Below, piece by piece: positions 5,690 through 14,011 of a stretch of DNA of 57,218 nucleotides. The DNA is taken from IMG/VR virus record IMGVR_UViG_3300033566_000030, positions 1 to 57,218 of that record; one strand, written 5' to 3'. The stretch comes from a virus (Duplodnaviria > Caudoviricetes). Both the position numbers and the translations under genes were made by a program. Every line of letters begins with the position of its first letter. The stretch's first letter is position 1. The notes under the pieces were generated by a model. The model was not told the origin of the DNA and did not search any database. It saw only the letters and a list, made by a program, of their open reading frames with translations.

Positions 5690-6391
5690 ATGACTACAAA
5701 CGTAACCATGAGAAGCACCGACAGGGAGTTGTTCGGTGTTACAATCAGACAGGGAACTAACCCTGCTTTTTTATCAGTAACCGATCTTCAAAAAGCTTAT
5801 GAGAAAGCTCGTTGGCAACATGGGTGGAGTGACAGAGAAATAAGTTCTGTTATGCAAACAACCGATTTCAAAGAAAGACTCTACTTTCTGCTCTATGAGC
5901 GAGGTCTGGTAAAACTAACGATTCTTAGTTTTATGGAGATGGTTGATAAAGAAGGGATTACAAGTGTGATGAAAGGTCTTGATGTTTGGAAAACTACTGG
6001 AAGAGGAACTAACAAAACAGTAATGGCTGATCCTTATATCTGGGTTCTTTTGGCTATGGAACTTAATCCTATGATTTATGCTAAGGTTGTTATCTGGCTT
6101 ACTGATAGTTTAATCTTTGATAGGATTGAAGCGGGGGCTGAGACAAAGCCTTTAAACGGAGCTTTATGTGCAATGCTTGGAGGTAAGGCAACGGCAGACA
6201 CTTATCGAAATGTTTACATTACACTAAATAATAAAGTATTCGGTCAACATATCAAAGGAATGAGAAACCTGGCAAGTGCTGCAGAGCTCAAACAAATTGT
6301 ACACATTGAGAAATTTTTACTAAATGCCATTAACCACGGATGGCTTAAGAGTGAAGCTGATGTGATAAACGCTATTGCGAGTTATACCTAG
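5690..6391 (+). CDS. KilA-N domain DNA-binding protein
   Basis: FGVTIRQ...FLSVTDLQKA and TTGRGTNK...ADPYIW...ELNP pattern typical of Bacteroidota phage KilA-N proteins. Confidence 0.7.
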   Translation: MTTNVTMRSTDRELFGVTIRQGTNPAFLSVTDLQKAYEKARWQHGWSDREISSVMQTTDFKERLYFLLYERGLVKLTILSFMEMVDKEGITSVMKGLDVWKTTGRGTNKTVMADPYIWVLLAMELNPMIYAKVVIWLTDSLIFDRIEAGAETKPLNGALCAMLGGKATADTYRNVYITLNNKVFGQHIKGMRNLASAAELKQIVHIEKFLLNAINHGWLKSEADVINAIASYT

Positions 6392-6427
6392 ATTTATTAT
6401 CTTTGCCTGTCAGCAATAACCAATAGT

Positions 6428-6712
6428 ATGAAAACAATTAAGACTGTGCTTATTACACCTAAGTATGTTTCCTTGATTCCTTCTGTGGAGGATATGGAAG
6501 AGAAGGTGTTCTATATATCTGAGCATAATGAGGTAGCTTCTCATCTATGTTTCTGCGGCTGCGGTCATGAGGTAGTTACCCCATTGGATTCGGATCAGTG
6601 GATCTTGTCTGGGGGTAAGGAGATTATCTCTCTATCACCGTCGATCGGTAATTATAATCTTGAATGCAAATCTCATTACGTCATTCGATTTAATAAAGCC
6701 AACTTTATATGA
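6428..6712 (+). CDS. DUF6527-like Cys/His protein
   Basis: HLCFCGCG...TPL...SLSPSIGN...CKSHYVIR. Confidence 0.7.
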   Translation: MKTIKTVLITPKYVSLIPSVEDMEEKVFYISEHNEVASHLCFCGCGHEVVTPLDSDQWILSGGKEIISLSPSIGNYNLECKSHYVIRFNKANFI

Positions 6713-7167
6713 AAAAGAAGAAACTAAAACTTATAGAGTTTCTCAACATGGGTTCTTTCCCGGGACTCATTCTCTTATCCGTTGGTCATACTTATGATGA
6801 GCTCATCAAACAGCTACAGAAAAATTATAAAACCGGTAACTGGGAAAAGGATCCTAGTGGGCTTGAACTTTGGCTCTTTGGTATCCAGGGCGATGAGAGG
6901 CTTCTTAATAATGGAAAGTTCTTCGGTCTCCGTCGTGAACTTACTCATCCGAAGTTTGGTACCAGGTACTTGTATTATATCATACTTCAGGAATTTGACT
7001 TCTCTGATGAGCACATGGTAATACTCGCTCATGAGTGCCTGCATATCTGCCAGTTCCATCTTCCGGATATACTGGATAGGAATAAGGAGCATGAGGCGGA
7101 GGCATACCTTCATACTCACATCATGAGGCAATGTCTGGAGAAAATGCGTAAACCTAAAATAAAATAA
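6709..7167 (+). CDS. HExxH metallopeptidase-like protein
   Basis: LAHECLHI followed by HEAEAY. Confidence 0.6.
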   Translation: MKKKKLKLIEFLNMGSFPGLILLSVGHTYDELIKQLQKNYKTGNWEKDPSGLELWLFGIQGDERLLNNGKFFGLRRELTHPKFGTRYLYYIILQEFDFSDEHMVILAHECLHICQFHLPDILDRNKEHEAEAYLHTHIMRQCLEKMRKPKIK

Positions 7168-7169
7168 AC

Positions 7170-7400
7170 ATGAAAACAAAAACACAGTTCAGAAAATGGT
7201 TCGATCTAATGTGGGGAAACCATTACATCCAGGTATTCATTTTGGACCTATTGTTTATGGGACTAATTACTTATCAGCTAGATGAGTTTGAAGAACCTTG
7301 GACTATTGCGGTAGCTTACGGTATTCCCGGATTAGCTTGCCTAGTAATAATCTACAAGGGCTTTTATAAGTTCTGGCAAGACATGAAGGATAAGTTATGA
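7170..7400 (+). CDS. Small membrane protein
   Basis: 76 aa, two hydrophobic segments. Confidence 0.7.
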   Translation: MKTKTQFRKWFDLMWGNHYIQVFILDLLFMGLITYQLDEFEEPWTIAVAYGIPGLACLVIIYKGFYKFWQDMKDKL

Positions 7401-7816
7401 TAGTAGCGCTTATATTATGGATCCTTGCCGCAATGTGCAATGCCATAATGGATACTCTGGTACATCACTTTGATACAAGTATCTTCAAAAATAAGGACCG
7501 TATGTTCTGGGATCCGGCGATAAGTTGGCGGAATAAATATGTGGATCGCGATAGTACAAAGAGTATCCGAAAACTTTGGATCTTTGATTACCCTGTAGCT
7601 TTTACAGATGCTTGGCATTTCTTTAAGAGTCTGATGATTGTATGTTGTTGCGTGACAATATTATCTCTGCACTAGTCAGCTGTTAAAAATCCTTACCTTT
7701 TAACTACGCAAATAGGTTGCGTAAAGGTAACAATAGGGCTTTTTATATTATTCGGCATTCTATGGAATACTGTATTCTCTGTATGTTATAACAGGATCTT
7801 TAGAAAAAAGAAATAA
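7397..7816 (+). CDS. Membrane protein with an in-frame TAG at 7673-7675
   Basis: The frame stays open for 46 more codons (SAVKNPYLL...IGLFILFGILWNTVFSVCYNRIFRKKK*), adding a TM helix and basic tail. Confidence 0.55.
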
Positions 7817-7818
7817 TA

Positions 7819-7850
7819 TTTGCACAGTTCAAAAACTCTTATTACATTTG
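7819..7850 (+). promoter_or_regulatory. Bacteroidota housekeeping-type promoter for tRNA array 1
   Basis: TTTG (7819-7822), 20 nt, TACATTTG (7843-7850); ATG follows 4 nt later. Confidence 0.8.
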
Positions 7851-7854
7851 TCCT

Positions 7855-7926
7855 ATGAAAATGCTATTACTCTTTAGTTATTGCTTGTGGTCGTCGAAAG
7901 ATGGCTCAGGGAAGACTATTGAATAA
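7855..7926 (+). CDS. Attenuator leader peptide 1 (MKMLLLFSYCLWSSKDGSGKTIE)
   Basis: 23 codons; codons 4-14 are only L/F/S/Y/C/W; contains CTCAGGGA complementary to the terminator 5' arm. Confidence 0.8.
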   Translation: MKMLLLFSYCLWSSKDGSGKTIE

Positions 7927-7960
7927 TGTTTTGTTACGCAACAGAAAACATTTGAACAAG

Positions 7961-7993
7961 AATCCCTGAGTACGCCAACTCAGGGATTTTTTT
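7961..7993 (+). terminator. Attenuator terminator ahead of tRNA array 1
   Basis: AATCCCTGAGT-ACGCCA-ACTCAGGGATT with a 7-T run, ending 4 nt before tRNA-Phe. Confidence 0.85.
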
Positions 7994-7997
7994 ATTT

Positions 7998-8069
7998 GGG
8001 ACTATAGCTCAGCAGGTAGAGCACGGGATTGAAGATCCCGCCGCACTGGTTCGATTCCGGTTAGTCTCA
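7998..8069 (+). tRNA. tRNA-Phe(GAA)
   Basis: Cloverleaf; CGGGA-TTGAAGA-TCCCG. Confidence 0.92.
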
Positions 8070-8075
8070 CAGAAT

Positions 8076-8160
8076 GGGAGTACTGCTAAGAAGGTGGATT
8101 AGCACTGGTCTGTAACACCAGTACAAGGAAACACAAATGGTTCGAATCCATTTACTCTCA
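8076..8160 (+). tRNA. tRNA-Tyr(GTA)
   Basis: CTGGT-CTGTAAC-ACCAG; long variable region. Confidence 0.88.
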
Positions 8161-8165
8161 CATAA

Positions 8166-8247
8166 GGAAGATAGCGTGCGATGGTGCACATCCGGTCTTG
8201 AACACCGGCGCGGTCCTATGGACAGGGTTCGACTCCTATATCTTCCG
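8166..8247 (+). tRNA. tRNA-Ser(TGA)
   Basis: CCGGT-CTTGAAC-ACCGG; variable arm; G73. Confidence 0.88.
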
Positions 8248-8258
8248 CAAAATTAAAT

Positions 8259-8330
8259 ACGAGTATGGTGCAGTGGCTAGCACAGCAGTCTCCAAAACTG
8301 TTGACGGAAGTTCGAATCTTTCTACTCGTG
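8259..8330 (+). tRNA. tRNA-Trp(CCA)
   Basis: GCAGT-CTCCAAA-ACTGT. Confidence 0.92.
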
Positions 8331-8335
8331 CAAAT

Positions 8336-8407
8336 GGAACTATGGATGAGTGGTTTAGTCCCCGGTCTGCAAAACTGGTTACGTTTGTTCGAATCAAACT
8401 AGTTCCT
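8336..8407 (+). tRNA. tRNA-Cys(GCA)
   Basis: CCGGT-CTGCAAA-ACTGG; U73. Confidence 0.92.
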
Positions 8408-8411
8408 CTAT

Positions 8412-8495
8412 AGAAGATAAACCTACTCGGGTAGGAGCAGCCTGCTAAGCTGTCTGGTCGCTATTGTGACTGTGGATCAGGGCCACTATCTTCTG
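8412..8495 (+). tRNA. tRNA-Ser(GCT), atypical T-loop
   Basis: GCAGC-CTGCTAA-GCTGT; variable arm; T-loop reads ATCAGGG. Confidence 0.75.
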
Positions 8496-8500
8496 CAAAT

Positions 8501-8574
8501 ACCTGTGTGGGCAAACGGCAAAGTCGCTTGACTTAGGATCAAGAGTTTTGAGGGTTCGACTCCCTCCATGGGTA
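8501..8574 (+). tRNA. tRNA-Leu(TAG), short variable loop
   Basis: CTTGA-CTTAGGA-TCAAG. Confidence 0.88.
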
Positions 8575-8654
8575 CAATAAAATGTTTAAACTATTTTGGT
8601 TTAAACTTCTGTTCTTTGAAATATTCTGATATCTTTGTGGTTCAATAAACCAAC

Positions 8655-9168
8655 ATGATAATAGATCCAAATTTTCAGACTCCGTTACCGGTAGTTGACC
8701 ACATGATCAGTATGATTCCAATAGGTGCAAAAACTGTACTAGAACCTTCTCCCGGATTAGGAAATATTGTCTCCAGACTTGGAGATTATGAAGTAACTGC
8801 TGCAGATGATTTTCTTTCTCCTGGATAGGAGTAAGCGCTATGATGCTGTTGTTATGAATCCACCATTCTCGGATAAGAGTGGGTTCATGGATAATGCGCC
8901 GGCTGAACTTAAGGAGAACAAGGGAATGCGTCTGGGTTATTACTTTTTACTGGAGTGCATGAAGATGAGTGATAATGTGATTGCCCTCATGCCATGGTTT
9001 ACATTAACAGATAGTGATCGTAGACTGCAGGCTTTAGAAGCTTATGGTATCAAATCTGTTACTTCTTTACCACGTAAGACCTTTGAATATGCACGCATTC
9101 AAACATGCATCATTCACTTACAAAAGGGTTACAAAGGTATCAGTATGTTTGACGTATTCAAATACTAA
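8655..9168 (+). pseudogene. N6-adenine DNA methyltransferase split by a +1 frameshift near 8810
   Basis: Frame from ATG 8655 has motif I (VLEPSPGLG); the 8806 frame has motif IV (VMNPPF); removing one T from 8810-8813 joins them. Confidence 0.8.
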
Positions 9169-9172
9169 CTTA

Positions 9173-9233
9173 TCTGTCCGAAGGTTATGAGGATGCCTCC
9201 TCCTGTAGGTTCATAAAGTAGACAGAAACAGGA
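9173..9233 (+). ncRNA. Small structured RNA with a potential pseudoknot
   Basis: Nested stems TCTGTC/GACAGA and TTATGA/TCATAA; loop TCCTGT complementary to 3' ACAGGA. Confidence 0.35.
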
Positions 9234-9236
9234 AAT

Positions 9237-9315
9237 GCTCCAGTGGCGTAACGGTAGCCGCGCAGGACTTAAAATCCTGTCTTAATTGGTGCGGGTTCAA
9301 GTCCCGCCTGGAGTA
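9237..9315 (+). tRNA. tRNA-Leu(TAA)
   Basis: CAGGA-CTTAAAA-TCCTG. Confidence 0.9.
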
Positions 9316-9346
9316 CTACTTTCAAGATTTTTTTGTATATTAGAAG

Positions 9347-9562
9347 ATGGGAGATTTTCTAAAATGGTTTTTTACTACACACATGCATCCTACGAGGATC
9401 ATAGTATGGAGAGAACTTTTCATGAATCTCATTACACTGATATTCGTTGTAACCTATGCCTATCTTGAGATTCGAGGTGCTGATGCAGCTACGATTACTA
9501 ATCTAAGAATGATCTTACTCTTCGTTCTTGGGTATTATTTCAACAGAAACTCGAAGCACTAA
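9347..9562 (+). CDS. Small two-TM membrane protein
   Basis: 71 aa; TATATTAG element at 9336-9343; ends VLGYYF. Confidence 0.65.
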   Translation: MGDFLKWFFTTHMHPTRIIVWRELFMNLITLIFVVTYAYLEIRGADAATITNLRMILLFVLGYYFNRNSKH

Positions 9563-9614
9563 GAAAAATATTTGGCTGATTTTCACAAAGTTATACTAAC
9601 ATACAAAAGATTTT

Positions 9615-9645
9615 TTTGGTAGCTCAAAAACTTACAGTACATTTG
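9615..9645 (+). promoter_or_regulatory. Bacteroidota housekeeping-type promoter for tRNA array 2
   Basis: TTTG (9615-9618), 19 nt, TACATTTG (9638-9645); ATG follows 5 nt later. Confidence 0.8.
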
Positions 9646-9650
9646 CCACG

Positions 9651-9761
9651 ATGAAACAAGTACAACATATAGCAAATCAAGTGGCGAAAGCCATGATTAC
9701 GCGCAGAGACGGGGTTGAACCGTTATGCCCGGAGGCTTTATATGCAGTATTTGAATTATAA
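9651..9761 (+). CDS. Attenuator leader peptide 2 (MKQVQHIANQVAKAMITRRDGVEPLCPEALYAVFEL)
   Basis: 36 codons; the first 24 contain all 14 amino acids of array 2 and none of L/F/S/Y/C/W; CGGAGGCTTT is complementary to the terminator 5' arm. Confidence 0.8.
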   Translation: MKQVQHIANQVAKAMITRRDGVEPLCPEALYAVFEL

Positions 9762-9789
9762 CACGAAAGTCATAACTCAAAATATAGCG

Positions 9790-9823
9790 AAAAGCCTCTG
9801 ATAATCTCAGGGGCTTTTTTTTT
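9790..9823 (+). terminator. Attenuator terminator ahead of tRNA array 2
   Basis: AAAAGCCTCTGA-TAATC-TCAGGGGCTTTT with a 9-T run. Confidence 0.85.
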
Positions 9824-9837
9824 GTTCTTTAAAATAA

Positions 9838-9910
9838 CGAGATATGGCGAAGTCGGTATCGCGCCTGGTTTGGGACCAGGAGAACGTAGGTTCGAACCCT
9901 GCTATCTCGA
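9838..9910 (+). tRNA. tRNA-Pro(TGG)
   Basis: CCTGG-TTTGGGA-CCAGG. Confidence 0.92.
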
Positions 9911-9935
9911 CATTAATAAATCGTTCTTTAATAAT

Positions 9936-10010
9936 GGGCTGTTGGCGGAGATAGGCGAGCGCACTTCCTTTGCAAGGAAGAACACAGGGGTTCAAGTCCC
10001 TTACGGTCCA
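9936..10010 (+). tRNA. tRNA-Ala(TGC)
   Basis: CTTCC-TTTGCAA-GGAAG; G3-U70 pair present. Confidence 0.9.
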
Positions 10011-10108
10011 CATGTAAAAAAAATTCTCTCTGGGTGACCTGGCACATACCAAGCCTTAAGCGCCGAACCTGGGACCGGAATGCAGTAGCACATAGGAGAG
10101 ACACATTA

Positions 10109-10148
10109 GCAGGAATAGCTCATTCGGTAGAGCGTCAGCCTTCCAAGC
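10109..10148 (+). pseudogene. 5' fragment of tRNA-Gly(TCC), truncated just after the anticodon loop
   Basis: GCAGGAA-TA-GCTC..GAGC-G-TCAGC-CTTCCAA-GC, then unrelated sequence. Confidence 0.8.
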
Positions 10149-10192
10149 AAAAATAAGTTTGGAAGGACAAAAAATAGATGTATCTTTGTTGT

Positions 10193-10612
10193 ATGAATAA
10201 GATATGTTGTACGTGTAAAGAAAATCTTCCTGCTGATAAGTTCAGCATTAGGAAGGATAGAAAAAAACCTTATTTACAGAGCTCTTGTAAAGAGTGTCAT
10301 AGTAAATATAGAAAAGAGCATTATGAAAACAATAGGGTAAAATACATTAAGAAAGCCAGTGTAAATAGACGTTCTTTGAGAGATTGGCTTACTGAGTACA
10401 AAAAAGGATTGTCTTGTGAACAATGTTCTGAAGATAGATTTTGGGTTTTAGAATTTCATCATACAGATCCTTCAAAAAAGGAAGGAGAGATTTCTTTTCT
10501 TGCCAAAAAAGGTAACAAAAAGAAAATCGAAGAAGAGATTAAAAAATGCATAGTTCTATGTGCGAATTGTCATAGAGATTTGCACTATAAACAAAAAGCA
10601 GGAAACGCATAA
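10193..10612 (+). CDS. HNH endonuclease with N-terminal Zn-finger
   Basis: CxxC motifs, LEFHH, LCANCH; promoter TTTG 10158 / TATCTTTG 10181-10188 favours ATG 10193. Confidence 0.85.
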   Translation: MNKICCTCKENLPADKFSIRKDRKKPYLQSSCKECHSKYRKEHYENNRVKYIKKASVNRRSLRDWLTEYKKGLSCEQCSEDRFWVLEFHHTDPSKKEGEISFLAKKGNKKKIEEEIKKCIVLCANCHRDLHYKQKAGNA

Positions 10613-10674
10613 CAGGTGGTGCACCAGACTTCCAATCTGGACTAGAGCGAGTTCGAGCCTCGCTTCCTGCTCCA
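10598..10674 (+). tRNA. tRNA-Gly(TCC), overlapping the HNH stop codon
   Basis: GCAGGAA/TTCCTGC-T-CCA; CCAGA-CTTCCAA-TCTGG. Confidence 0.88.
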
Positions 10675-10846
10675 AACGGTAGACCTCCGCGAAAGGTACG
10701 CCGGGAAAAATATGAAGATCTCAAGGTCTGGATGATAGAAAATCTGGATTGAATGAAGAAGGGTTAAAGGCCCTGACCCTACACTATCGAGGGTTATGTT
10801 TGCAAAAGCTTCGTTGTCTTGAAGTAGTATTTTTCCAAAGCAATTT

Positions 10847-10921
10847 AGCTTGTCGGTCCAGTCTGGAGTGGACGCCGCACTGTCACTGCGGAGATCAGGG
10901 GTTCAAATCCCCTACGAGCTG
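10847..10921 (+). tRNA. tRNA-Asp(GTC)
   Basis: CCGCA-CTGTCAC-TGCGG. Confidence 0.92.
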
Positions 10922-10924
10922 CAA

Positions 10925-10999
10925 GAGGAATGGATATAGGTTCGAATCCTATTGCATCAGCGAAAGCCGATGTATCGTTTAACGGTAAGACAGTTCCTT
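10925..10999 (+). ncRNA. Circularly permuted tRNA mimic (YrlA/Y-RNA-like topology)
   Basis: Order: stem GAGGAAT, T-arm ATAGG-TTCGAAT-CCTAT, acceptor stem closed by GC-GAAA-GC, D-arm GTTT-AACGGTA-AGAC, then GTTCCTT. Confidence 0.75.
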
Positions 11000-11006
11000 A
11001 TTTTAT

Positions 11007-11078
11007 TACTCCTTAGCTCAGCGGTAGAGCAGTGCCCTGTTAAGGCAAAGGTCGTAGGTTCAATCCCTCCAGGAGTAG
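11007..11078 (+). tRNA. tRNA-Asn(GTT)
   Basis: TGCC-CTGTTAA-GGCA. Confidence 0.88.
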
Positions 11079-11087
11079 CAGAAATAT

Positions 11088-11159
11088 TCACACGTAGCTC
11101 AACGGTGGAGCACCACACTGATAATGTGGCGGATGTCGGTTCGAATCCAGCCGTGTGAA
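11088..11159 (+). tRNA. tRNA-Ile(GAT)
   Basis: CCACA-CTGATAA-TGTGG. Confidence 0.9.
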
Positions 11160-11165
11160 CATAAT

Positions 11166-11240
11166 ACCAGAATAGCTCAGTTGGTTCAGAGCAGATCCCT
11201 TACAAGGATAAGGTCGGGAGTTCGAATCTCTCTTTTGGTA
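11166..11240 (+). tRNA. tRNA-Val(TAC)
   Basis: ATCC-CTTACAA-GGAT. Confidence 0.9.
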
Positions 11241-11325
11241 CATAAACGATGATAATTTAAACTTGTAATGTTTACACTAAAGAGATACAAAGCAATAAAG
11301 GTTAGGATAAGATCCTAATCACTAT

Positions 11326-11396
11326 TCCTTTGTAGCTCAATGGTAGAGCTTGCGGCTTTTAACCGTAAGATCCAAGTTCGATTCTTGGCAGGGGAA
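11326..11396 (+). tRNA. tRNA-Lys(TTT)
   Basis: TGCGG-CTTTTAA-CCGTA. Confidence 0.92.
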
Positions 11397-11410
11397 CTTT
11401 AAAAAGATTT

Positions 11411-11484
11411 CTCTCCGTAGCTTAATTGGATGAAGCAGCTGCCTTCTAAGCAGCAGATTACAAGTTCGAGTCTTGTCGGAGAGA
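11411..11484 (+). tRNA. tRNA-Arg(TCT)
   Basis: GCTGC-CTTCTAA-GCAGC. Confidence 0.92.
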
Positions 11485-11487
11485 CAA

Positions 11488-11559
11488 GCGCCCTTAGCTC
11501 AAAGGCGGAGCAGGACACTCATAATGTCAAGGGTGCAGGTTCGATTCCGGCAGGGCGCA
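11488..11559 (+). tRNA. tRNA(CAT), probably Ile2 (lysidine type)
   Basis: GACA-CTCATAA-TGTC; acceptor GCGCCCT with C4-G69 and C5-G68 as in Ile2 tRNAs. Confidence 0.8.
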
Positions 11560-11571
11560 CAAGAAATATAA

Positions 11572-11645
11572 TGCGGGGTAGAGGAGCGGCCGTCCTCGTG
11601 AGACTCATAACCTCAACATCGCTGGTTCGAATCCAGCTCCCGCAA
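11572..11645 (+). tRNA. tRNA-Met(CAT)
   Basis: TGCGGGG acceptor resembles initiator tRNAs, but the anticodon stem lacks three consecutive G-C pairs. Confidence 0.85.
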
Positions 11646-11715
11646 CAAAAGGATTAATGAGTGCCTGATAAAAAGCAGAGAATATAATACCAGGTTCTCT
11701 GCGGTCCTTTTAAAT

Positions 11716-11787
11716 GTTCCTGTCTTCTAATGGTTAGGATAGAGCCCTTTCACGGCACTGATACGAGTTCGATCCTCGTCGGGAATA
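11716..11787 (+). tRNA. tRNA-Glu(TTC)
   Basis: GCC-CTTTCAC-GGC. Confidence 0.88.
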
Positions 11788-11792
11788 CATAA

Positions 11793-11865
11793 GCCGAAAT
11801 AGCTCAACGGTAGAGCTCCTGTTTTGTAAACAGGAGGTTTGTAGGTTCGAATCCTATTTTCGGCT
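11793..11865 (+). tRNA. tRNA-Thr(TGT)
   Basis: CCTGT-TTTGTAA-ACAGG. Confidence 0.92.
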
Positions 11866-11880
11866 CTTTTAATAAGATGT

Positions 11881-11955
11881 GGGGTCTTTAGTTTAAGGGT
11901 AGAACACTGGCTTGTGATGCCGGATATCTGAGTTCGAGTCTCAGTTGGCCTCCCA
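11881..11955 (+). tRNA. tRNA-His(GTG)
   Basis: CTGGC-TTGTGAT-GCCGG; G-1/C73 and encoded CCA; weak acceptor stem. Confidence 0.82.
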
Positions 11956-11965
11956 TCTTATAAAT

Positions 11966-12037
11966 AGTTTCCTCGTCCAACGGATAGGACATTAGACTAC
12001 GGATCTAAAAATAAGCGTTCGAGTCGCTTGGAGACTA
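11966..12037 (+). tRNA. tRNA-Arg(ACG)
   Basis: TTAGA-CTACGGA-TCTAA. Confidence 0.9.
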
Positions 12038-12042
12038 CTTAT

Positions 12043-12113
12043 TAGCCTATAGTTTAATGGCAGAACGGTTGGTTTTGATCCAACAAATCGTGGTTCGAGT
12101 CCGCGTCGGCTAA
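12043..12113 (+). tRNA. tRNA-Gln(TTG)
   Basis: GTTGG-TTTTGAT-CCAAC. Confidence 0.9.
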
Positions 12114-12178
12114 CTTTCTCTCCTCAATGTTTGGTTCTTTCGCATCTTTTGTTTATATTAGTATAAACAGACTACTTC

Positions 12179-14011
12179 ATGGATTCAATAAACTTTACAG
12201 CATGGGTAGCACAACAAAGAATCTTACAAGCTTCTGATATTGTTGCTGCAGATGACCTGTTAATCATAGGTAAAAAAATAAGTAAAAATCGTAGTGGAAG
12301 AGGTTATGAAGAGTTCGTTATAAGTGTAGCGGATTTTTTCTCTTCAGTTGGAAACGGATATACTTTTGTACAAGATGAAGGTATAACTCTTCCACAAAGA
12401 ACAACAATGAATTTTGTTGGTACTGGAGTAACTACTTCTGATATTGGAGGTAAAACGACAATTACTATCGCAGCTGGTGGTCATGCTATAGAAGATGAAG
12501 GTGTTGCTTTAATCAGCCGTCCTATCATGAATTTCGTGGGTGCTGGTGTTGCTGTTACTGATACCGGTGGTAAAACTTTGGTAACTATAGCAGGAGCTCA
12601 TATCATAGAAGATGAAGGGGTTCCTTTAGGAACACAAAGAACTTCTTTGAACTTTACCGGTAATATGGTTTCTGTATTCGATAATGCGGGTAAGACGGAG
12701 GTTAATATTAATCTTTCTATCATGAGAAAGGTTATTTATGTTGATGGTATTAATGGTAACAATGCTTTAGCAGCTGCTAATCTATACGATCAAAAATACG
12801 CGTTTCTTACTTATAACGCAGCTCATGCTGCAGCTGCACAAAACGATACCATTATTCTTTTACCCGGATCTGCTTATACTTGGAACGGTGGTCAGATATT
12901 CAGAAACGGTGGAGCCATTGAAATCATGAAAGGTGCGACTCTTACTTGGATATGGACTCCTGGTGCAATTACTGGAAATACAGGAGACTCTTTCACTATT
13001 TATGGTGAAGGTACTTTTAGTATGAACAATACCATTGATGCTACAGATCCAGCAGGTAATAAAACTTTCAACATCTTTGTTGATACATTCAATATTACTG
13101 CAGGTAATGGTATTTGTTTCGCTCGTGGTTTCATGAAGTTCAACATCGATGTTAATGTTTGTAACTTTAATACGGTTAGTGCTGCAGGTTTCTTTACAGC
13201 AGAAGCGCCAATCTTGAAATTCAAGTGTAATAAAGCAAACTGGGATACTCCATCATTCCCAGGATTTGTATTTAGTGCTCTTTCTGCATCAACAGATGAA
13301 TCTACTTTTGATATCGAAGTGATGAATATCACACGCGGTGGTTTATTCCAGGTACAACTTGGAACAAGTCAAAATTACAAGATTCGTGTAAAAGGTAAGA
13401 TCAACAGTACTTCAAGTGCACCGGCAGCTGTTGGTGTAATTACAACATCTCAATCACCTGCAGGAACCATAAACTCAGAAGCTGATATCGAATGTACAGG
13501 AAGTTCTTTCCCTTATTACATTACAGGTGGTAGTCGTGTGAGTATCCAAGGAACTGTAAAAAGCAATCCTCCTGCTCAGAACCAATCAGCAATCTTAGTA
13601 GATAATGCTTCTGCTGAGGTAATCGTCCGAAATGCAAACGTATTTGGGAACAGACTTGCTGGTGGAGCTATTTGGGCTGTAAGAGGCCTTGTAATGATTG
13701 AAGAATCAACGGTTACGAACGAGGCTTCTGTATCAGGTACAAGTTATGCAGTACAAGTTGGTCCAAATGGAATCAGTTCAGCAGGTTTAATAAAAACTCT
13801 TCTGAAAAGCGTAGTTCTTTTATCAGATCCTGTAACAGGAAATGCTGGAACAGCTCCTACAATATATGTGGATCAGCCTTCCGGAAATCAAGTGATTCAA
13901 TATTTAGGAACAGTTACAGCAAACGGTATAGAATCGGCTAACGTTACAGAAGAATTAGGATTCTACACTTTCTGGCAAGGTGTGACTGTATCAAGAATAC
14001 CGAAAGTATAA
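12179..14011 (+). CDS. Tail fibre / receptor-binding protein
   Basis: Three tandem ~39-aa repeats (IEDEGV..R..MNFVG.GV...D.GGKT..TI), then IYVDG and a beta-helix-like region. Confidence 0.65.
   Translation: MDSINFTAWVAQQRILQASDIVAADDLLIIGKKISKNRSGRGYEEFVISVADFFSSVGNGYTFVQDEGITLPQRTTMNFVGTGVTTSDIGGKTTITIAAGGHAIEDEGVALISRPIMNFVGAGVAVTDTGGKTLVTIAGAHIIEDEGVPLGTQRTSLNFTGNMVSVFDNAGKTEVNINLSIMRKVIYVDGINGNNALAAANLYDQKYAFLTYNAAHAAAAQNDTIILLPGSAYTWNGGQIFRNGGAIEIMKGATLTWIWTPGAITGNTGDSFTIYGEGTFSMNNTIDATDPAGNKTFNIFVDTFNITAGNGICFARGFMKFNIDVNVCNFNTVSAAGFFTAEAPILKFKCNKANWDTPSFPGFVFSALSASTDESTFDIEVMNITRGGLFQVQLGTSQNYKIRVKGKINSTSSAPAAVGVITTSQSPAGTINSEADIECTGSSFPYYITGGSRVSIQGTVKSNPPAQNQSAILVDNASAEVIVRNANVFGNRLAGGAIWAVRGLVMIEESTVTNEASVSGTSYAVQVGPNGISSAGLIKTLLKSVVLLSDPVTGNAGTAPTIYVDQPSGNQVIQYLGTVTANGIESANVTEELGFYTFWQGVTVSRIPKV

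Follow-up and report, generated by a model that had tools for sequence, protein, structure and literature searches.

A putative leader-peptide attenuator ahead of phage tRNA genes, with leader codons matching the tRNAs behind it

Transcription attenuators that work through a translated leader peptide are known for amino-acid biosynthetic operons of Proteobacteria (trp, his, leu, thr, ilv, and pheA). In the pheST attenuator, a leader peptide (pheM) senses charged tRNA and the output is an aminoacyl-tRNA synthetase, while T-box riboswitches need no ribosome and recognize a single uncharged tRNA directly, by means of a specifier codon and the conserved T-box sequence. Here, we analyze a tRNA gene array in the IMG/VR virus record IMGVR_UViG_3300033566_000030, whose complete 57,218-bp sequence we call the window, and in particular a short leader open reading frame (ORF) and an intrinsic terminator that stand between a promoter and eight tRNA genes (unit 1). 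We conclude that unit 1 is very probably a ribosome-mediated (leader-peptide) transcription attenuator of the trp/his type that responds to decoding capacity and adjusts the tRNA supply in return. To our knowledge, leader-peptide attenuation of tRNA genes has not been described; our literature search found no description of it, with subscription journals mostly outside that search and an older description possible.

Why phages carry tRNA genes and how these genes are controlled are open questions. A leader that lists the codons of the tRNAs behind it would link the supply of tRNAs directly to the demand for decoding in a feedback loop. It would also provide a signature readable from sequence, in which the leader spells out which tRNAs form one transcription unit.

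Unit 1: leader codons, tRNA genes, and alternative RNA structures

The order of elements in unit 1 is promoter, leader ORF, terminator, and tRNA genes, with the following features in the window.

7819..7850, + strand: predicted promoter of Bacteroidota type (TTTG at 7819-7822, a 20-nt spacer, and TACATTTG at 7843-7850)
7855..7926, + strand: leader ORF 1, 23 codons plus TAA (ATG at 7855, stop at 7924-7926; peptide MKMLLLFSYCLWSSKDGSGKTIE)
7864..7896, + strand: putative sensing run, codons 4-14 (CTA TTA CTC TTT AGT TAT TGC TTG TGG TCG TCG)
7875..7895, + strand: region 1, the anti-antiterminator, predicted to pair with 7900-7918 (which contains region 2) when ribosome-free
7904..7912, + strand: region 2, the antiterminator strand (G plus CTCAGGGA; partner at 7963-7971)
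7925..7952, + strand: small hairpin between regions 2 and 3, seen in folds
7960..7993, + strand: intrinsic terminator (5′ arm 7960-7971, region 3; loop 7972-7977; 3′ arm 7978-7989, region 4)
7987-7993, + strand: T-run of the terminator, seven T
7998-8070, + strand: tRNA-Phe(GAA)
8076-8161, + strand: tRNA-Tyr(GUA)
8166-8248, + strand: tRNA-Ser(UGA), called at the relaxed threshold of ARAGORN
8259-8331, + strand: tRNA-Trp(CCA)
8336-8408, + strand: tRNA-Cys(GCA)
8412-8496, + strand: tRNA-Ser(GCU), non-canonical, called at the relaxed threshold of ARAGORN
8501-8575, + strand: tRNA-Leu(UAG), last of the contiguous block 7998..8575
9237..9316, + strand: tRNA-Leu(UAA), the eighth member of the group, beyond an insert of ~660 nt

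Leader 1 opens with ATG AAA ATG, ahead of a run composed of four Leu codons, three Ser codons, and one codon each for Phe, Tyr, Cys, and Trp. These six amino acids are precisely the ones carried by the eight tRNAs downstream. A preliminary description of this locus had reported eleven consecutive matching codons, and reading the sequence directly bears this out, with 11/11 codons encoding an amino acid carried by a tRNA behind the leader. After the run, the leader continues as AAA GAT GGC TCA GGG AAG ACT ATT GAA TAA. A six-frame count over the 114,432 codon positions of the window found five runs of at least 11 codons drawn from {L,F,S,Y,C,W}, among which the run in leader 1 alone contains all six amino acids. 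Given that this set makes up a fraction of 0.243 in the long ORFs of the window, the probability of 11 consecutive members is 1.7e-7. Several of the leader codons are read by wobble, and many are rare in the phage's own genes (relative use of 0.07 for CTA, 0.06 for CTC, 0.06 for TCG, which is used twice, and 0.19 for TGC); both properties would be expected to raise the sensitivity of the sensor.

tRNA genes were called with ARAGORN at its default and then at a relaxed threshold, and positions 7000-12500 were scanned with Rfam at E-values up to 0.1. At the default threshold, ARAGORN detected Phe(gaa), Tyr(gta), Trp(cca), Cys(gca), Leu(tag), and Leu(taa) behind leader 1, while Ser(tga) at 8166-8248 and Ser(gct) at 8412-8496 emerged at the relaxed threshold. 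Rfam gave a sub-threshold tRNA-Sec match for the former (32.3 bits versus a gathering score of 47) and no match for the latter. Both Ser genes are kept in the relatives described below, and the group size of eight proposed initially is therefore correct; two of the eight members, the Ser tRNAs, rest on weaker calls than the others. The Ser(GCU) gene has a very small D-loop and a T-loop without the usual GTTCRA motif. This non-canonical form is conserved in four contigs (window 8412-8496, L003 11300-11381, L151 ~760-850, and L163 ~6050-6115; L numbers denote the loci that we compared), and the L163 copy looks shortened. Leu(UAA) directly follows Leu(UAG) in L003, L151, and L163, and no terminator-like site was called on the + strand of the window between 8576 and 9236. 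The insert that separates the two Leu genes of the window carries, at 8655-9168, a small gene for an N6-adenine DNA methyltransferase (Pfam N6_Mtase, E 8e-5) that is split into overlapping frames (8655-8828 and 8806-9168), which could reflect a frameshift, a sequencing error, or a pseudogene. Between Leu(UAA) and the second promoter lies a hydrophobic ORF of 71 amino acids (9347-9562) with no Pfam match.

The pattern TTTG-N17-23-TAnnTTTG has four matches in the window, three of them on the + strand. Two of these three directly precede the two leader ORFs discussed here and have the sequence TCAAAAACT...TACATTTG in common. We labeled the promoters of the window on the basis of TTTG / TAnnTTTG, which we take to be the Bacteroidota promoter consensus. 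Because the unit 1 promoter ends 4 nt from the ATG, its transcript is probably leaderless or nearly so, with the transcription start inferred from the motif. The same layout of TAnnTTTG, 4-5 nt, and ATG recurs at 10181-10195 before an in-frame ATG of an HNH gene, which suggests that leaderless or near-leaderless mRNAs may be normal in this phage. The window, with a completeness estimate of 48%, includes genes for a large terminase and a portal protein, and the terminase is distantly related (23-24% identity) to terminases of crAss-like, Bacteroides, and Flavobacterium phages. Given these terminase relatives and the Bacteroidota-type promoters, the host is probably a member of the Bacteroidota.

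The four segments of unit 1 are those of a classical attenuator, with mutually exclusive helices. As noticed initially, CTCAGGGA at 7905-7912 repeats the 3′ arm of the terminator, in which the second CTCAGGGA occupies 7979-7986, and its complement TCCCTGAG lies at 7963-7970. The terminator has a 12-bp stem, ends 4 nt from tRNA-Phe, and folds at -19.4 kcal/mol (7958-7996; z -7.0). The competing region 2:3 duplex reaches -16.3 kcal/mol versus -7.3 +/- 1.9 in shuffled sequences, only 1/500 of which was as good, and the antiterminator element 7903-7972 reaches -20.7 kcal/mol (z -4.0), equaled by 0/200 shuffles. Pairing of regions 1 and 2 (7864-7920) yields -16.8 kcal/mol (z -3.2), again equaled by 0/200 shuffles, and is also seen in the minimum free energy (MFE) structure of the full-length leader. 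The complete leader folds at -44.5 kcal/mol, with a z of -5.7 versus shuffles. The hairpin at 7925-7952 had been proposed to help region 2 capture the terminator 5′ arm; it is present in the folds, but alone it is not significant (-3.8 kcal/mol, z -1.45, 17/200 shuffles as good).

To model stalled ribosomes, we folded nascent RNA ending just before the terminator 3′ arm while masking 28 nt around each codon (assumed to extend from -15 to +12 of the A-site). The 9-bp antiterminator was intact for stalls at every codon up to 7891, shrank to 6 bp at 7894, and was lost from 7897, the first non-matching codon, to the stop. In silico, the window of productive stalling therefore ends where the matching codons end. 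The same boundary was obtained for unit 2 of the window, both units of L003 and of L151, units A and B of the Cellulophaga phage phi4:1, and the units of L159, L155, L154, and L156. Capture of the terminator 5′ arm by 7905-7912 is thus supported by the masked folds, by the comparison of the duplex with shuffles, and, above all, by the comparison with other phages.

A second unit in the window and comparable units in other phages

A second, paralogous unit follows unit 1 in the window.

9615..9826, + strand: unit 2
9615-9645, + strand: predicted promoter of unit 2 (TCAAAAACT...TACATTTG, in common with unit 1)
9651-9761, + strand: leader ORF 2 (MKQVQHIANQVAKAMITRRDGVEPLCPEALYAVFEL)
9730-9739, + strand: region 2 of unit 2
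9791-9817, + strand: terminator of unit 2, with T-run
9838-12114, + strand: array of 16 tRNAs for the other 14 amino acids

Downstream of the promoter, unit 2 reads MKQVQHIANQVAKAMITRRDGVEP-LCPEALYAVFEL and then the terminator. Its tRNAs carry Pro, Ala, Gly, Asp, Asn, Ile, Val, Lys, Arg, Met, Glu, Thr, His, and Gln, and codons 2-24 of leader 2 (23 codons) contain each of these 14 at least once and lack all six listed by leader 1. The chance of covering all 14 in 23 draws is 0.0075, and the split of codons between the two leaders is highly significant (Fisher test on the 2x2 table 11, 2; 0, 23; p = 1.3e-7). In masked folds, the antiterminator of unit 2 was lost from the first non-matching codons. 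Within the array, at 10104-10674, an HNH endonuclease ORF (10178-10612) lies between a 5′ fragment resembling tRNA-Gly(UCC), with a weak Rfam tRNA match at 10109-10234, and the complete tRNA-Gly(UCC) at 10598-10674, which the ORF overlaps. An HNH gene likewise lies between two tRNA-Gly genes in crAss001, with 76% nucleotide identity over 109 nt, and the ORF in the window looks like a homing endonuclease targeting tRNA-Gly.

Several searches for relatives of the window were performed. An amidase query returned 13 loci, and a tRNA scan of these plus L020 (14 loci) found an array in L003 alone, whose amidase is 72% identical to that of the window. A pattern search for Ser(GCU) in metagenome contigs gave one match. 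A 15-mer from the leader matched at least 120 unrelated stretches, with the L003 contig being the only relevant one among the matches listed. No relatives were found via the 610-aa protein at 12179-14011, and the group-1 region of three viral loci had no exact 14-mer in common. The five loci returned by a large terminase query were all too distant from any tRNA array to help. Among sequencing runs, those listed included no RNA run, and the shares in DNA runs were small (0.15 of words or less). A contig of a metagenome-assembled genome labeled Uliginosibacterium, which matched the amidase query, is probably a binned phage contig and useless as a host handle.

The two-unit layout is common to the window, L003, L163 (a metagenome contig close to L003), and L151. 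The run of unit 1 is LLLFSYCLWSS in the window and SLLFSYCWLS, LLLFSYCWLL, and SLSFSCLWYL in the relatives, and the unit 2 leaders likewise list the same 14 amino acids in a reshuffled order. Regions 2, 3, and 4 read CTCAGGGA, TCCCTGAG, and CTCAGGGA in the window; TCCGGG(T), (G)CCCGGA, and TCCGGG in L003 (stem GCCCGGA/TCCGGGC); TCCGGG, CCTGGA, and TCCAGG in L163 (stem GCCTGGA/TCCAGGC); and ACCTGAGA-like, AGATCCCAGGT, and CCTGGGAT in L151 (stem AGATCCCAGG/CCTGGGAT). The leader in each of the three relatives thus has its own copy of the terminator 3′ arm, and region 2 is still complementary to region 3 through compensatory change. Composition and pairing are thus conserved and sequence is not, as would be expected if selection acted on a sensor and not on a peptide. 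RNAalifold on the four nascent leaders returned a misaligned consensus instead of the 2:3 helix and was not used.

Four other uncultured lineages, three of them on contigs of 391-636 kb, also have the attenuator design, as do the Cellulophaga phages phi4:1 and phi17:2 (Lightbulbvirus). The arrays of phi4:1 and phi17:2 are organized in three units, with memberships unlike those of the window.

phi4:1/phi17:2: leader MKI-QRLHLQELEQP, before Pro, Glu, Gln, His, Leu, Leu, and Arg(ACG)
phi4:1/phi17:2: leader ..TKTGITVIDKTKGARA.., annotated as a hypothetical protein, before Ala, Lys, Ile, Gly, Met, Asp, Thr, Val, Arg(UCU), and Met
phi4:1/phi17:2: leader MKT-NYCTYNNSNWSFSY, before Tyr, Ser, Ser, Asn, Trp, Phe, and a Cys-like tRNA
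L162 (636-kb uncultured phage LR756504.1): KQDKQYQPQYD, before Asp, Tyr, Tyr, Gln, and four Lys
L155 (391-kb contig): YYWYYY, before two tRNA-Tyr
L143, L150, and L159: one common leader, with 19/22 codons matching the tRNAs seen (our own count)
L156 (94-kb contig): 22 codons with 19 different amino acids (simulated p = 7e-6), before 20 tRNAs

Differences in unit membership are mirrored by the leaders. An Asn tRNA belongs to the UNN-type unit of phi4:1, whose leader has four Asn codons, and to unit 2 of the window, whose leader has AAT; Asn tRNA and Asn codons have moved together between units, and leader codons thus follow the moved genes. For Arg in phi4:1, the unit that holds Arg(ACG) has CGT in its leader, and the one that holds Arg(UCU) has AGA. 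In GenBank KT962245.1 (phi4:1), the unit B leader (L141 4281-4400) is annotated as a 39-aa hypothetical protein starting inside the promoter, and another hypothetical protein (L141 6409-6510) overlaps a tRNA-Ser(UGA) called by ARAGORN at the relaxed threshold.

We pooled 11 units, leaving out L154, L156, L159, and L163 as well as L161, whose leaders are identical to those of L141. Codons in the sensing window matched the unit's own tRNA set in 132/161 cases, versus 52/120 for tail codons (Fisher p = 1.8e-11). When leaders were re-paired with tRNA sets, 0/200,000 permutations scored as high as the actual arrangement; when each lineage was represented once (7 units), 1/5040 re-pairings did so, namely the true pairing. 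In a test of region 2:3 complementarity in 13 units, at most 10/500 shuffles were as good for eight units and 22-61/500 for four, and one unit failed.

Proposed mechanism and rival explanations

In the mechanism that we propose, the transcript would start a few bases upstream of the 7855 ATG, and its 23-codon leader would be translated by a ribosome. Slow decoding of any codon in 7864-7893 due to scarcity of the charged tRNA would leave the stalled ribosome over region 1 and region 2 free, and region 2 (7904-7912) would then pair with 7963-7971 before the 3′ arm is made, allowing readthrough into the eight tRNA genes. Upon quick decoding, the ribosome would reach the stop at 7924 and cover region 2, the terminator would form, and transcription would end at the T-run (7987-7993). 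If no ribosome is present, region 1 would pair with region 2, and the terminator would again form. The unit would thus act as an OR-gate, with roughly one codon in the leader for each tRNA under its control; tRNA supply would feed back negatively on tRNA synthesis, and the tRNAs would be made only when matching codons are read poorly. What our analysis shows of this scheme are the sequence parts, the alternative structures, their placement with respect to the codon run, and the way leader codons co-vary with tRNA content among phages; the transcription start, leader translation, ribosome footprint, and regulatory response are what we infer. The attenuator proposed in the preliminary description, with codons matching the downstream tRNAs, is supported by the masked folds and the duplex test, and above all by the units of other phages.

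Three other explanations were considered. With the same architecture, the signal could be general translation status or amino-acid starvation, coupling tRNA synthesis to overall ribosome activity or charging. A cis-acting mechanism of this kind answers any slowing of the leader ribosome, an untranslated leader would favor termination through 1:2 pairing, and single codons per amino acid argue against fine discrimination; yet a general sensor has no need for a leader that lists its own tRNA set, whereas the true pairing is unique among the 5040 and codons follow tRNA genes that moved between units. We consider this explanation unlikely. It is very improbable, in our view, that the ORF is either spurious or a gene for a small hydrophobic peptide, with the hairpin being an ordinary leaky terminator or processing signal before constitutive tRNAs and the codon match a product of T-rich sequence. 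The peptide has no known family or function, the five same-set runs of at least 11 codons in six frames are mostly F/L/S-rich in non-coding frames, and our screen yielded non-matching candidates in other phages, all of which would fit this explanation. However, leader 2 includes every one of the 14 remaining amino acids without being T-rich, peptide composition is conserved but order is not, region 2 co-varies with the terminator arm, and in unit after unit the codon run stops where the predicted productive stall window closes. We give the least credence to sensing without a ribosome, in which a tRNA bound directly, as in a T-box, or a phage or host protein would choose between terminator and antiterminator. 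Although tRNA-sensing T-box riboswitches exist and the unit has mutually exclusive helices, neither a T-box nor any other cis-regulatory family of Rfam was found in 7000-12500 at E-values up to 0.1, every unit has an in-frame start and stop with its matching triplets in frame, and the primary sequence is not conserved.

A number of points weigh against a ribosome-mediated attenuator that senses its own tRNAs. In unit 1, CTC is unreadable by Leu(UAG) under strict wobble and needs four-way U34 wobble, and the strict-wobble codon match is 9/12. Whereas classical attenuator leaders carry tandem codon runs, each amino acid is listed just 1-4 times here, and sensitivity may be low unless a tRNA is severely limiting. 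The leader start is devoid of a Shine-Dalgarno sequence, and its translation would therefore need a leaderless transcript or a very short 5′ end, with the promoter motif being the basis for the transcription start. The stop of unit 2 lies 20 nt beyond region 2, and a ribosome at this stop leaves region 2 uncovered; default termination must therefore rest on 1:2 pairing, as seen in the MFE structure, or on steric hindrance. Modeling choices also enter the masked folds, namely the assumed ribosome footprint and the treatment of a kinetic process by equilibrium folding. In other phages, the match covers 8/17 sensing codons in L162 (as a contiguous block) and is partial in L154 (about 8/16 codons), the L159 leader has Phe and Arg codons with no such tRNAs in the stretch examined, and unit B of phi4:1 fails the duplex test with the arm definition used (349/500 shuffles as good). 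Unit 2 of L163 keeps a rich leader ahead of a tRNA-Pro and three weak tRNA-like matches in the remaining 1.3 kb of the contig. Our leader-terminator screen, which was simple and covered the fetched stretches, found no unit in crAss001, Acinetobacter phage AbTZA1, L145, or L148 and returned terminator-plus-ORF candidates without codon match in three loci (L164, L166, and L157); the candidates in a Sinorhizobium phage, a Vibrio phage, and L157 do not match their tRNAs. The second leader of L163 (MRNIQHTVQMNIVRKGDKP..., within 6290-7881) is retained before the reduced array, which may be in decay with its sensor still present.

The grouping of tRNAs has a further regularity. The preliminary description had stated that most unit 1 tRNAs read UNN codons and had raised the possibility that the split follows a shared vulnerability or a modification by MiaA/MiaB. 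The first part proved correct, with 6/6 A36 tRNAs in the eight-member group (hypergeometric p = 2e-4). In phi4:1, 5/6 UNN readers fall in one seven-member unit (p = 0.003), and CNN readers fall 5/5 in another. The units of the window (7998-12114) and phi4:1 (L141 3488-7219) split tRNAs largely by first codon base (anticodon position 36) and keep isoacceptors together, with the window separating UNN from the rest and phi4:1 separating UNN, CNN, and ANN plus GNN. Such modules in two lineages could reflect monitoring of class-wise weakness, such as a missing modification at position 37. The division is not the same elsewhere: L162 groups Asp, Tyr, Gln, and Lys, L155 has a unit for Tyr only, and L156 places nearly all of its tRNAs in a single unit. 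The units can therefore be explained without invoking any one modification class.

A broader generalization can be offered only tentatively: tRNA arrays of Bacteroidota phages, from crAss-like relatives of ~100 kb to megaphages of 400-640 kb, might be demand-driven modules in which each leader is a codon checklist for exactly the tRNAs it controls. A phage could thereby detect which decoding capacities are lacking, due to codon-usage mismatch, host shut-off, or tRNA-cleaving defence, and replace only those. If unit 1 is an attenuator, phage tRNAs would be expected to be made as demand arises instead of constitutively, and phi4:1 or phi17:2 on Cellulophaga baltica offers a culturable system for this prediction. 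Checklist leaders may also serve annotation and, as attenuators working as multi-input OR-gates with up to about 19 amino acids per leader, the design of synthetic circuits.

Comparison with known systems

Dense arrays of up to 20-30 tRNAs, often interrupted by small ORFs and homing endonucleases, are likewise found in crAss001, T4-like Acinetobacter and Vibrio phages, and the Sinorhizobium jumbo phage Phosso; they differ in that our simple screen detected no matching leader-terminator unit in the stretches fetched for these four. E. coli pheV was considered as a comparison, as a gene that might have an attenuator-like leader, and dropped, as the K-12 upstream region shows a promoter only, without a leader ORF or terminator.

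With the T-box, the phage unit would share tRNA-dependent control of termination and an antiterminator that competes with the terminator. It differs in having many codons read in frame and in giving no T-box match in the Rfam scan. As in pheST (pheM) and other attenuators of translation-apparatus genes, a leader peptide would respond to charged tRNA and tune part of the machinery for translation, but in pheST one amino acid is sensed and the output is a synthetase, whereas the output of the phage unit would be a whole set of tRNAs.

The closest likeness in architecture is to the attenuators of amino-acid operons, and the predicted structures of unit 1 include every structural feature of a leader-peptide attenuator that could be examined. 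These are a promoter-proximal short ORF with regulatory codons, the 1:2, 2:3, and 3:4 helices, a terminator with T-run, and, in silico, an antiterminator freed by a stall at the regulatory codons. The Rfam leader families of these operons (trp, his, leu, thr, ilv, and pheA) gave no match in 7000-12500 at E-values up to 0.1. Unlike its counterparts, the phage unit would control tRNAs rather than enzymes, the molecule sensed being the product itself. Its leaders list 6, 14, or ~19 amino acids once to a few times each in place of a tandem run for one amino acid, and the units come in sets that partition the tRNA array, with a Bacteroidota-type promoter 4-5 nt from the ATG. The tRNA output and the leader that serves as a checklist of many amino acids are features foreign to the known attenuator families.

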